A stretch of 64,000 nt of DNA from Bacteroidota bacterium. Its GTDB lineage: Bacteria; Bacteroidota; Bacteroidia; NS11-12g; UBA955. Location: the NCBI GenBank assembly GCA_018333525.1, contig JAGXTF010000076.1, positions 57,424-121,423 of the forward strand. The letters run 5' to 3'. Within the stretch, counting starts at the first letter, position 1, and each line of letters starts with the position of its first letter. This document shows positions 46,429 through 54,900 of the stretch, in pieces. Both the position numbers and the translations under genes were made by a program. The notes under the pieces were generated by a model. The model saw only the letters and a program-made list of their open reading frames with translations. It made no database searches and had not been told where the DNA came from.

Positions 46429-46809
46429 ATGAAAGCACATGAGCACTTTTTATATACTATTTTGAAATCAAATGTGCACGACAATTGTTATTTTTACAGA
46501 AATTACCCCATGGAAGTATATTATGATACTGTAAGTGTTGCCATAGCCGAATTTGAGCAATCCGGCTTTGAGGCTGAATTTCAAATAGTTAACGACAGCG
46601 TATGTATTGGCGAGGAATGTTGGCTTCCCGAAATGGTAAAAATTGTTAGAATCGGTCGTTATGAAGGCAATTCAGATCCCGGAGATGAAGCAGTTATCTA
46701 CGCACTGGAAACCAACGATGGCAGAAAAGGCTGGCTTCTGAGCAGTTTTGGCCCTTACGCCGATGGCGATGTTAACGATGTTTTGGAGAAAATTCGAATA
46801 TCAAGGTAA
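46429..46809 (+). CDS. Hypothetical cytoplasmic protein (126 aa).
   Basis: ORF only. It converges on the dnaX 3' end. Confidence 0.3.
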   Translation: MKAHEHFLYTILKSNVHDNCYFYRNYPMEVYYDTVSVAIAEFEQSGFEAEFQIVNDSVCIGEECWLPEMVKIVRIGRYEGNSDPGDEAVIYALETNDGRKGWLLSSFGPYADGDVNDVLEKIRISR

Positions 46810-48593
46810 ACGCAATCCCAATTTGCGGATGACTTCTTCCAGATCCGGATTTTTTTTGATCATATAATCTAATTTTTCCTTGTCTGTGTAAGGTCTGCGT
46901 TCCTGTTCCTTAACCTCTCCTGCCACTATTCTCAAACTGGTAAGTTTACCACCTGAAATATCCGTGATAAATCGGTTGAAGGGAAATCTAACAGCCTCTA
47001 AAACCTCCATTTTCGATGCCGCAATAGTTACAACTACTTCATTTCCTTCTCTCACCGGGCGCATCATTTTCATCAAACTTGCAGTTTTCACAGACTGGGT
47101 TTCTACAAATTGATTCCACCAGGAAATCAACTCGCTTTCACCAACACTATTTGCCCATTCGGAATTGGTTTCTGAAAGCACTGCATTTTCAGGAGGTTCA
47201 TTTAATCCCAATTCACCCTGTGTATCGGAATTCTCGGGATTATCTTCAGAATTGGAAATTTCTTCTTTTACAGGATTTATTCCTTTTGCATCTTCGCCAC
47301 CGGCGTTTTTACCGGCTTCGTCATTGTCTTTTTTTCTGGAATCTTCTCTTTGTTGTTTGAATGCTTCAAACCCGGAAAGTCCAACTCTGGTATTTTCGAG
47401 TTTTTCTATATGTACAGGAGCTGCCGGGGCATTGGAATGTTTAATTTCCGCGGCTACAGGCGGAGATTTTTTCAGTTCAGAAATTTTTTTTTTAATTCCT
47501 CGATATCTCCGATTCCAGTTAGGTAACTGTTTAAATGAGCCAGCTTCATGAGACATAATTCCACCAATAAACGTGGATTCCGCGAAGCTTTGTATCGCTC
47601 ATCACATTCGTTTACCATGTTTAGTGCATTGAGTATAAACGAAAATGAAAGGGAAGCGGATTGTTGTTTGTATTTTTCAATGAATGCACCGCCCACTTCC
47701 AGCAAAATTTCTGTTTTTACATCTTTGCATACTGCCAGATTTCGCAAATGTTCCGCGAGCCCGCCTATGAAAGAACTGCCATCAAATCCCTTGCGGATAA
47801 TATCGTCAAAAATGATCAGACATTTGGCTACATCTCCATTTCTGATATTGTCCAGAATTTCAAAAAATGTTTCGTGATCCAGTACATTTAGAATTTCAAC
47901 CGCTTTTTCATACGTGAGATTGCCCTCGGTAAAACTCACCAGCTGATCGAATATGCTCAACGCGTCCCTTAAGCCCCCATCTGCTTTTCTCGAAATCAAA
48001 TGCAATGCATTTTCATCTGCTTCAACCCCTTCTTTATTCGCAATTTCCCTCAGGTGGCTTACCATATCCTTTACTTCAATACGGTTAAAATTAAACACCT
48101 GACATCGGCTGAGAATGGTTGGCAGAATTTTGTGCTTTTCCGTGGTAGCCAGAATAAAAATGGCGTATGGAGGAGGTTCTTCCAGTGTTTTCAGAAATGC
48201 ATTGAATGCTGAGGTACTCAGCATATGCACCTCATCAATAATATACACTTTGTATTTTCCAACCTGTGGTGGAATTCGCACCTGATCAATTAAATGGCGT
48301 ATATCATCTACGCTGTTGTTGCTGGCTGCATCCAGTTCAAAAATATTGAATGCAAAATCCTGATTGGGATCCACACCTTCTTCCCTGCTATTGATTACTT
48401 TGGCAAGGATTCTGGCGCAGGTGGTTTTCCCTACTCCTCTTGGACCGGTAAATAAAAATGCCTGTGCAAGTTTGTTGGATTCAATTTCATGCATCAGCGT
48501 TTCCGCAACATGCTTCTGACCCACTACCGTATCAAAAGTAGTTGGTCTGTATTTGCGTGCTGAAACAATGAAATTATCCATTACGGGCTGCAA
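46801..48593 (-). CDS. dnaX: DNA polymerase III subunits gamma/tau. The zero frame stops after 373 aa (gamma-like), and full-length tau needs a -1 shift at an A10 run.
   Basis: Walker A 'FTGPRGVGKTTCARIL', Walker B 'IIDEVHMLS' and sensor 'LSRCQVF'. The zero frame ends '...GDIEELKKKFLN*' at 47472. The -1 frame is open from 47609 through the A10 run (47484-47493 on +, T10) and continues for 230 aa to 46801. Confidence 0.75.
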
Positions 48594-48650
48594 ATTAAAT
48601 CCGTGTTAGACCTGCTGGCAAGAAATGTGAATAAAAGTTAAAGACAAAAA

Positions 48651-48676
48651 AAAATGCCCGAGAATTCAGGCATTTT
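48651..48676 (-). terminator. Rho-independent terminator for the membrane-protein gene 48699..49073.
   Basis: On the - strand: AAAATGCC-tgaattctcg-GGCATTTT followed by a T9 tract (rc of A9 at 48646-48654). An 8-bp stem. Confidence 0.5.
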
Positions 48677-48698
48677 CTTGTAGAAATTAAAATAATTT

Positions 48699-49073
48699 TT
48701 ATGCTTCTGATTTTTTCATCCCCAGAACAAGCGCTGCGGCCCCCATTCCAATAGCGCACCAGGCGCCGTTGGCAATACCGCCGGTAATCACTTTCATTGC
48801 GTCATCGGCTTCTTTGCCATCAATGAAAATCATTGCCAACCCCCATAGCAATCCAATAATAAATCCATTGAGCAATCCTTTCATCAATGTGGTTGTTCCC
48901 ATTGAATTTGCCAGCCATGCAATTAAGGCGCCTATAAAAACGTGCCCTAAAGCAATCATGCCCATACTCATGCCTTCAGATTCGGATTTCAGAATGATTC
49001 CCCAGATTAACCATCCGCCCAGAAACATAGCAACCATGGCTACGATTGCAGCTAATAATAGTCTTGTATTCAT
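48699..49073 (-). CDS. Small hypothetical integral membrane protein (4 TM, Gly-rich).
   Basis: Hydrophobic helices 'LLLAAIVAMVAMFLGGWLIWGIIL', 'IGALIAWLANSMG' and others. Confidence 0.4.
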   Translation of the reverse strand: MNTRLLLAAIVAMVAMFLGGWLIWGIILKSESEGMSMGMIALGHVFIGALIAWLANSMGTTTLMKGLLNGFIIGLLWGLAMIFIDGKEADDAMKVITGGIANGAWCAIGMGAAALVLGMKKSEA

Positions 49074-53826: not shown

Positions 53827-54900
53827 TTAATTACGGTATATTTTCATCAGGTGTTTAGCGATATGGTTTCGCTCTATTTCTTTTAATATTTCGGGATTTG
53901 AAGATTTGAGAAAAATACTGTGCTCGGATTGTGTGAGTCTCAAAAGCGCATCTGCCATTTCCCGAAATTTATTGGGATGAAAATAAAATGCCGCATCTCC
54001 CGCCAATTCTCTGAAAACGGGAATATCGGAAACTGCCATTGGCAAGCCACAAACCGCGGCCTCCGCCAGTGGAATTCCAAAACCTTCAAATAAAGACGGA
54101 TAAACAAATGCAGAGGCATGCTTCATCAAATGCATCAAATCTCGGGTTTCCGGATCTGTAATTACCCGAATTCGGGTCCCTAATTTTTCATGATCCACGA
54201 ATTTTTTCACCTCATCCAATGTATTTCCGCTCGCTCCTACCAAATACAAATTCCAGTCGCATAAATTCTGAATCGCGGCAAATGCTTCAATTAAAGTTCC
54301 ATGATTTTTTCTGTGTGAGAAACCCGAAACATAAATAAAATAAGGGCTTTCCTCCAATGATTTTTTAGGAATAGTATCATAAAATATTTGCTGAACCGGC
54401 TGGTAAACCACTTCGCATTTGCCGGAAAAGGAAGGATAATAATTCTGAATATCTGCGGCAGTTGCATGGCTGGTAGCCACTACAACATCCGCATTTCGCA
54501 AAGCATTTTTTGTTTTCCAGTTGTAAATCAAACGGTCGGTTAGGGGATAAAATCCGGGATACCTTTTAAAGATCACATCGTGAATGGTTACTACAGAGCG
54601 AATTCCGTATTTCTTTAGCCCCGTTGGCAATTCATTACTCAATCCATGAAACACATCAATCTTTTGCGCTGCAGCAGTTTTTGCCATTCCAAAAACCCGC
54701 CAGAATAATCCTTTTTTTTTCGGTGTAAAAACACTGAGATTTTTGAATTCGACGAAAGGCTTATTTTCAGTTTCACTGAATAATACAAATTCATCATCCG
54801 GAAATTGCGCAGCTAAGGCATGAACTATTTCCCGACTGTAATTTCCTAGGCCAGTTTTGTTGTTAAAATATCTTTTGCCATCAAAACCGACGCGCATCAC
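53827..54900 (-). CDS. Glycosyltransferase family 4 (GT-B).
   Basis: EX7E-type motif 'FEGFGIPLAEAAVCGLPMAVSD'. Confidence 0.8.
   Translation of the reverse strand: MMRVGFDGKRYFNNKTGLGNYSREIVHALAAQFPDDEFVLFSETENKPFVEFKNLSVFTPKKKGLFWRVFGMAKTAAAQKIDVFHGLSNELPTGLKKYGIRSVVTIHDVIFKRYPGFYPLTDRLIYNWKTKNALRNADVVVATSHATAADIQNYYPSFSGKCEVVYQPVQQIFYDTIPKKSLEESPYFIYVSGFSHRKNHGTLIEAFAAIQNLCDWNLYLVGASGNTLDEVKKFVDHEKLGTRIRVITDPETRDLMHLMKHASAFVYPSLFEGFGIPLAEAAVCGLPMAVSDIPVFRELAGDAAFYFHPNKFREMADALLRLTQSEHSIFLKSSNPEILKEIERNHIAKHLMKIYRN

Follow-up and report, generated by a model that had tools for sequence, protein, structure and literature searches.

Organization of the dnaX locus

We analysed a stretch of 64,000 nucleotides (nt), hereafter the window, from an uncultured Bacteroidota bacterium (assembly GCA_018333525.1, contig JAGXTF010000076.1, positions 57,424 to 121,423 of the forward strand), which contains a dnaX gene whose clamp-loader products, gamma and tau, are encoded in two overlapping frames that meet at a run of ten adenines (A10). 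The gene lies on the minus strand, and its zero-frame open reading frame (ORF; 47472..48581) codes for a gamma-like product of 369 amino acids (aa), with clamp-loader domains I-III, that ends in ...EELKKKFLN*. Its translation contains the DnaX motifs Walker A (GPRGVGKTT), Walker B (IIDEVH) and SRC (LSRCQ), and the product matches the Pfam domains DNA_pol3_delta2, DNAX_ATPase_lid and DNA_pol3_gamma3 (gamma/tau domain III) as well as TIGR02397 (dnaX_nterm, 396 bits). An initial annotation, made from the letters of this DNA, had reported these motifs and a stop three codons past the run, which the translation and the Pfam matches bear out. It had also placed the start at the first TTG, at 48593; instead, the gene probably starts at the ATG at 48581 (MDNF...), and the zero-frame product is identical to the database protein P0001, of 369 aa and with the N-terminus MDNF.

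On the minus strand, the zero-frame ORF finishes with the codons GAG GAA TTA AAA AAA AAA TTT CTG AAC TGA. The A10 run (47484..47493, minus strand; T10 on the plus strand), which the zero frame reads as TTA AAA AAA AAA, is the proposed site for a -1 slip of either RNA polymerase or the ribosome, and a homopolymer scan identified it as the longest homopolymer of the window. Two stops follow closely on the same strand: the zero-frame TGA (47472..47474), three codons past the run, would end the gamma-like product of the templated mRNA, and a TGA in the +1 frame (47477..47479), evident from direct reading of the sequence and two codons past the run, would end transcripts with A9 or A12.

The tau-specific segment is in the -1 frame (46801..47484, minus strand). 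Its first codon, ATT, takes its A from the end of the run (47484), and a stop at 46803-46801 closes it after 227 aa. These consist of a linker that is variable and rich in acidic residues and Pro, an ELGLNEPP motif and a conserved C-terminal domain (46804..47178, minus strand), which spans the last ca. 120-125 aa and ends in ...RRPYTDKEKLDYMIKKNPDLEEVIRKLGLRLP. Fused to the zero-frame product at the run, and counted from the ATG at 48581, the segment yields a tau of 593 aa. The initial annotation was right that the -1 frame carries the tau tail and is open through the A10, although its upstream limit needed correction: the frame is open from 47598 and not from 47609, due to a TGA at 47601-47599.

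The fused protein aligned through residues 1-592 with positions 1-613, out of 614, of the NCBIfam profile PRK14971 (gamma/tau; 644 bits), and the -1-frame segment alone matched positions 483-613 of this profile (E = 2.9e-7). Likewise, a search of 5.8 billion proteins retrieved single-ORF tau proteins from Bacteroidota, of 563-629 aa and 54-57% identity, that cover 100% of the fused sequence, with an alignment that takes in the C-terminal motif RPYTDKEKLDY. By these matches, both halves of the locus are dnaX. A Pfam search of the C-terminal 227 aa gave no match, and a phmmer comparison with PDB sequences gave matches at chance level only. An AlphaFold model of the last 136 aa was of medium quality, with a mean predicted local distance difference test (pLDDT) value of 66 and of about 80 in the core. 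Used as a Foldseek query against PDB, this model found no match at E < 0.001; the seven best matches, statistically weak, were nevertheless coherent, with domain I of DnaA (4tps), tau in the DNA polymerase III (Pol III) complex (5fku_E), DciA (8a3v, 7ykm) and tau C14 (2aya). The modelled fold is consistent with that of the C-terminal domain of E. coli tau and, by analogy with characterised systems, we infer that this domain binds the alpha subunit of Pol III.

Dinucleotide shuffles of the window contained 6.7 +/- 3.9 A10/T10 runs, versus the single one observed, indicating that long runs are depleted. An A10 is not improbable from composition alone; the signal resides in the position and the conservation of the run and not in its mere occurrence.

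The two-frame arrangement is conserved among close relatives

We compared the window with ten independent close loci, 83-90% identical to it, one from a GenBank metagenome-assembled genome (MAG; locus L002) and nine from Logan, ENA and JGI assemblies (loci L081-L089); a nucleotide alignment (A1) included nine distinct sequences, those of the window and of eight relatives. In all ten relatives the run is an A10 of unchanged codon phase, the zero frame stops (TGA or TAA) three codons past it, bases +5 to +7 past it form a TGA in the +1 frame (columns T85, G86 and A87 of A1, invariant), and the -1-frame tail is intact, with 227-244 aa. The check proposed in the initial annotation, an alignment of the A-run in close relatives, thus showed a constant length of ten and a tau that is split rather than encoded in a single ORF. 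The ten A's are invariant across the nine aligned sequences while the flanks carry many synonymous differences, and two relatives have CTA in place of TTA as the Leu codon in front of the run, with the A at its third position retained. The twelve nearest database proteins (83-100% identity) share the same end point, KKKFL[NKST] or KKKVLN. Within the tails, the linker is variable and contains in-frame indels, whereas the motif ELGLxEPP and the C-terminal domain of ca. 120 aa are conserved; the median pairwise ratio of non-synonymous to synonymous substitution rates (dN/dS) for this domain was around 0.2, a value that is only qualitative because dS is saturated (ca. 2.8).

Homopolymers of ten bases are prone to errors in several sequencing platforms and the window derives from a MAG, so that the interruption could in principle result from a sequencing or assembly error, or from a recent inactivating mutation, in a gene that actually encodes tau in a single ORF with A11 or A8. 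However, the A10 and the stops in the zero and +1 frames were identical in ten independent assemblies from different projects, dnaX is likewise split in the genomes of isolates, from Flavobacterium and Chryseobacterium among others, and two conserved stops immediately past the run are features that no error would create. We found no other gene of the window broken at a homopolymer: its other A8, T8 and A9 runs sit within intact ORFs of 246-770 aa and genes of up to 1292 aa are unbroken, indicating that the assembly is not riddled with homopolymer indels. We therefore consider an error or a recent mutation extremely improbable. The initial annotation had offered a programmed gene and an indel as alternatives; the first stands, while the indel is contradicted by the A10, stops and intact tail shared by the ten relatives.

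In databases, every relative is annotated with a truncated 'gamma/tau' gene and a separate, downstream hypothetical ORF. The regularity with which gene callers predict this second ORF, together with the existence of a -1-frame ATG at 47556 in the window, would fit a truly split gene, producing a gamma-like protein and a separately initiated C-terminal protein with no recoding. Nevertheless, the called starts vary among loci from 54 to 240 nt past the zero-frame stop, with products of 142-222 aa, and the ATG at 47556 is upstream of the run and is not conserved, with stops interrupting the -1 frame at that place in most relatives. The first ATG past the run in the tau frame is codon 137, beyond conserved linker motifs including ELGLNEPP. 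Moreover, tau functions as a covalent link between clamp loader and polymerase, a role that a free C-terminal fragment would not fulfil. Two independent proteins are thus a highly improbable outcome of this locus, and we have little doubt that it is a real, programmed two-product dnaX gene.

An adenine run marks the gamma/tau boundary across Bacteroidota

A survey of one genome per GTDB species yielded 80 dnaX loci from Bacteroidota, of which we analysed 76 after excluding one running off its contig and three without a poly-A run at the boundary. The gene is split at the poly-A, at the end of domain III, in 25 of the 76 loci, with A10 in 21 of them, A12 in two, and A9 and A13 in one each. The tails add ca. 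200-235 further codons, in the -1 frame at 22 of the 25 split loci and in the +1 frame at the other three (L013, L028 and L058), whose tails have normal tau C-termini. Isolate genomes are represented among the split loci by Flavobacterium quisquiliarum, F. denitrificans, F. psychrotolerans, Chryseobacterium lathyri and C. ginsenosidimutans.

The run is not restricted to split genes. From the 51 single-ORF genes, 43 carry A9-A11 at the same boundary, at around codons 350-386 (L001, L003, L004, L006-L008, L010-L012, L014, L016, L018-L020, L024-L027, L030, L033 and others), and the run is exactly A10 in 38; considering split and unsplit genes, A10 occurs at the same position of the gene in 59 of the 76 loci. 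In 79% of the 43 unsplit genes both alternative frames stop within six codons, compared with 16% at random positions of the same genes. From this sequence pattern, unsplit Bacteroidota dnaX genes seem to have, phylum-wide, a Thermus-like arrangement in which gamma would be produced by slippage. Depending on the lineage, the first A of the run falls on codon position 1, 2 or 3 in the 76 loci. Its presence in every codon phase, in split genes or not, indicates that the conserved element is the A10 itself and that what varies is the product encoded in the templated frame.

Poly-A tracts are also slippery for DNA polymerase, and a few loci have A9, A11, A12 or A13; the run could therefore be a phase variation switch, in which slipped-strand mispairing would turn tau ON (A11) or OFF (A10) by genotype, with the majority allele appearing in the assembly. 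Against this, the run is A10 in those 59 loci whichever product is in frame, and it is A10 in both L083 and L084, two contigs from one cluster. Additionally, tau is essential, so a majority genotype in the OFF state would not be viable. We give hardly any credence to a switch at the DNA level.

The three loci that encode tau in the +1 frame reflect either natural variation, in which case they would speak for slippage in either direction, or homopolymer errors in their assemblies. L028, from Flavobacterium sp. YO12 (run at ca. 1490), has an A9, whereas its close relatives L023 and L029 have an A10 in nearly identical surroundings, and this A9 places tau in the +1 frame; at L013 and L058, the +1 frame of tau goes with an A10.

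Other loci depart from the general pattern. Two dnaX genes from uncultured Bacteroidales lack an A-run and contain an in-frame TAG at the gamma/tau boundary (L032:2787-2789 and L066:4098-4100; ...CCA TAG ATT GCx AGG TCG CC...), followed by a conserved IARSPQA and by 201-254 in-frame codons up to a tau-like C-terminus; the TAG could be subject to programmed stop-codon readthrough or be reassigned. In a further uncultured Bacteroidales (L077:3001-4150) the zero frame ends at 383 aa without a poly-A, with 249 more codons open in the +1 frame, which may be a break of another type or an artefact of the assembly. Finally, the contig of L001, with a dnaX 57% identical to that of the window and an A10, is labelled in GenBank as 'uncultured Rhizobium sp.', probably due to an error in binning or taxonomy.

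RNA structure around the run

We looked for elements that could stimulate recoding on both sides of the run. Folding of 150 nt around the site gave a minimum free energy that was not significant for a 3' stimulator (z = -0.55), and the consensus fold of the nine-sequence alignment reached -1.7 kcal/mol, the only pairing in it being that of the A-run with flanking U's. Across 79 loci, the 45 nt downstream showed no signal of structure either (mean z = +0.14), and the sequence past the zero-frame stop cannot be aligned even among close relatives. A lone, weak hairpin, CCGCCUGUAGCCGCGG, which matches a terminator-like pattern on the plus strand (47443-47468), begins 15 nt past the run and is not conserved. 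Upstream, the window contains the Shine-Dalgarno-like motifs GGAG (47510-47507) and GAGGA (47501-47497); neither is conserved in L083, L085 and L086, and across the relatives GGAG changes to GAAG, GGTG or GCAG and GAGGA to GAAGA, GAACA or GAGGC. Stimulators of the E. coli type were consequently rejected for the window site, with no stem-loop 5-9 nt 3' of the heptamer and no conserved Shine-Dalgarno-like element.

In other lineages, the 34 nt on the 5' side of the run contain a stable hairpin of 6-8 bp that ends 0-3 nt before the A10 (L017, L023, L029, L034, L053, L018, L020, L060, L073, L012, L007, L058, L050, L008, L013, L022, L003 and L049), with stem sequences that vary by lineage. For instance, in Flavobacterium the hairpin CCUCCAUCA-CUUU-UGAUGGAG directly abuts the A10, and in L058 GCUUGUG-UCAACU-CACAAGC is separated from the A10 by GC. 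Hairpins of the nascent RNA that promote slippage of RNA polymerase have been described at this 5'-adjacent position (Penno et al. 2015, as cited in PMC5009743) and, by analogy, a 5' hairpin might tune slippage in the lineages having one.

A model of slippage during transcription

How the two frames are joined is a separate matter. In the model that we favour, normal translation of the templated A10 mRNA would produce the gamma-like subunit of 369 aa, ending in ...ELKKKFLN*. When RNA polymerase transcribes the T10 template, the nascent A-run would realign, with gain or loss of A's. Transcripts with A11, A8 or A14 would place the downstream 227 codons in frame, leading to a tau of 593 +/- 1 aa with the junction ...ELKKKISELKK..., and those with A9 or A12 would run into the conserved +1-frame TGA, giving another gamma-like product that ends in ...ELKK(K)NF*. 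Templated and slipped transcripts from one gene would hence supply both forms of the clamp loader, with the essential long form depending on non-templated transcripts.

Four aspects of the data favour slippage by RNA polymerase. First, ten A's are kept independently of codon phase, when a ribosomal heptamer needs seven; indeed, a conserved run of ca. 10 A's corresponds roughly to the length of the RNA:DNA hybrid more than to a phased heptamer. Second, tau is sometimes in the +1 frame, out of reach for a -1 ribosomal slip. Third, stops guard both non-tau frames, as in the dnaX gene of Thermus. Fourth, there is no significant or conserved 3' structure and no conserved upstream Shine-Dalgarno-like element.

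The main competing explanation is programmed -1 ribosomal frameshifting, by which a faithful A10 mRNA would be decoded with a tandem slip of tRNA-Lys on A AAA AAA, as in E. coli but with the products swapped. There are two in-phase A AAA AAA heptamers within TTA AAA AAA AAA, and the -1 frame of tau at 22 of the 25 split loci is the one that such a slip would reach. The review by Atkins et al. (2016) treats the reversed type of dnaX as ribosomal frameshifting, and reports E. coli-like stimulators for Chlorobium phaeobacteroides, with an A7. At the window site, however, no 3' stem-loop is suitably spaced, the sole hairpin being the unconserved one 15 nt past the run, and the upstream GGAG/GAGGA motifs are not maintained in L083, L085 and L086. 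Bacteroidota ribosomes, besides, make little use of Shine-Dalgarno pairing, which also counts against this explanation. Seven A's would be enough for the ribosome and yet ten are kept, in all codon phases, and at three loci the +1 frame encodes tau; in E. coli, A AAA AAA is far less shift-prone than A AAA AAG (PMC5009743). We thus regard ribosomal frameshifting as unlikely to be the main mechanism.

Several observations weigh against transcriptional slippage. The sequence A AAA AAA is in the zero-frame phase of the window gene a legitimate slippery heptamer for a -1 ribosomal slip, and a contribution from translation is possible. The production of tau solely from slipped transcripts demands a high slippage efficiency, such as that shown for the A9 of Thermus. 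The 5' hairpin abutting the run that is present in many other lineages is absent from the clade of the window (z = +0.7). The loci with tau in the +1 frame come from two MAGs (L013 and L058) and one draft isolate genome (L028), where homopolymer errors are possible. Lastly, in a literature search we found no experimental test of slippage in Bacteroidota dnaX or in genes with this two-ORF organization. That the slip occurs at transcription rather than at translation, as well as any ratio between the products, is something that we infer. Taking the evidence as a whole, we consider it likely that the run is a genuine recoding site and that the slip takes place at transcription, from A10 to A11.

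Comparison with other recoded genes

A class of dnaX genes with two ORFs is known from an earlier genome comparison (Antonov et al. 2013, NAR 41:6514, PMC3711429). It included 17 genes from 12 genera, nine of them with an A10, with members in Flavobacterium johnsoniae, F. psychrophilum, Cytophaga hutchinsonii, Capnocytophaga ochracea, Chlorobium spp. and Coraliomargarita, and the authors predicted transcriptional realignment for the class, by analogy with Thermus. As in these genes, ORF1 of the window gene (domains I-III) ends right after the A10, the C-terminus of tau is in the overlapping -1 frame and the long product needs recoding; the site and direction of the shift are also kept among related genomes, here in the ten close relatives. 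At phylum level the window falls in the same group, Bacteroidota, but its lineage is a different, uncultured one. There are differences in the flanks of the run, TTA-A10-TTTCTGAACTGA in the window versus GGAG-A10-GTTGAGCAAT in Flavobacterium, and the hairpin abutting the run in Flavobacterium has no equivalent in the window. In terms of sequence, the window dnaX has every feature that characterises the two-ORF class, and is a new example of a known phenomenon.

The dnaX gene of Thermus thermophilus undergoes transcriptional slippage at an A9, with stops nearby in both alternative frames and a heterogeneous mRNA (Larsen et al. 2000, PNAS 97:1683, as related in PMC1088944 and PMC5009743). The initial annotation had pointed out the resemblance to this system, and it holds: both have a long A-run on the sense strand (at least nine) at the gamma/tau boundary, with close stops in the two non-tau frames. 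In Thermus, nonetheless, the templated transcript specifies tau and the slipped one gamma, whereas in the window this is reversed, with tau requiring one extra nucleotide or the loss of two, and the run is A10 rather than A9. Tau not being in the zero frame, the window gene can be described as Thermus in reverse.

A similar reversal applies with respect to E. coli and Salmonella (A AAA AAG), as the initial annotation correctly noted for E. coli. The gene is the same, as are the boundary after domain III, the richness of the shift site in lysine codons and the two forms of the clamp loader, but in E. coli tau is the zero-frame product, while in the window the zero frame gives the short product, tau needs a slip, and the heptamer is A AAA AAA and not the optimal A AAA AAG. 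Furthermore, efficiency in E. coli dnaX depends on a Shine-Dalgarno-like element and a stem-loop, and neither is conserved at the window site.

Beyond dnaX, transcriptional slippage is required for the longer product of mxiE from Shigella flexneri and of tssM from Citrobacter rodentium, where overlapping ORFs are linked by a homopolymer and the full-length protein is recovered through non-templated nucleotides (PMC4256274); these genes code for a regulator of virulence and for a component of type VI secretion, instead of essential replication proteins, and do not show a phylum-wide arrangement. In Caulobacter crescentus, one dnaX gene also leads to tau and a shorter gamma, but through ClpXP proteolysis and with no recoding (bioRxiv 10.1101/2022.11.10.516041).

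We give roughly equal weight for and against a broader interpretation. According to it, the A10 at the boundary of domains III and IV would be a slippage cassette of ancient origin, present throughout Bacteroidota and in the Chlorobi relatives reported in 2013; slippage of RNA polymerase would be efficient enough to have allowed repeated swaps of tau and gamma between templated and slipped products; and the lineage of the window would make its essential tau exclusively from non-templated transcripts, with no helper structure.

Neighbouring features

Immediately upstream of dnaX there is a terminator-like hairpin followed by a T9 run (48648-48679, minus strand), identified only by its match to the consensus, and the preceding ORF codes for a membrane protein of 124 aa (48699-49073). 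The position of the terminator-like hairpin suggests that dnaX may be transcribed from its own promoter. Elsewhere in the window, an A9 run (54712-54720, minus strand) is located about 60 codons into an intact ORF for a GT4 glycosyltransferase (53827-54900), where it is read in frame (T P K K K G). The length of this run would suffice for transcriptional slippage or for phase variation, and the frame is unbroken.

Significance

The two-ORF class was published in 2013, and a single instance such as that of the window adds little beyond confirmation. The leads that, as far as we found, go beyond that description are the A10 in most unsplit Bacteroidota dnaX genes, the 5' hairpins and the two Bacteroidales loci with a TAG. 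For annotation, the locus should be recorded as one dnaX gene with programmed frameshift or slippage, and not as a truncated gamma/tau gene next to one for a hypothetical protein. The phylum-wide A10 pattern offers a natural series on what sets slippage efficiency, and on what happens to the tau:gamma ratio when the templated product swaps. The window would add another lineage to those whose essential tau relies on a decoding 'error', supporting the idea that the tau:gamma pair is under selection while the way of producing it is evolutionarily labile.

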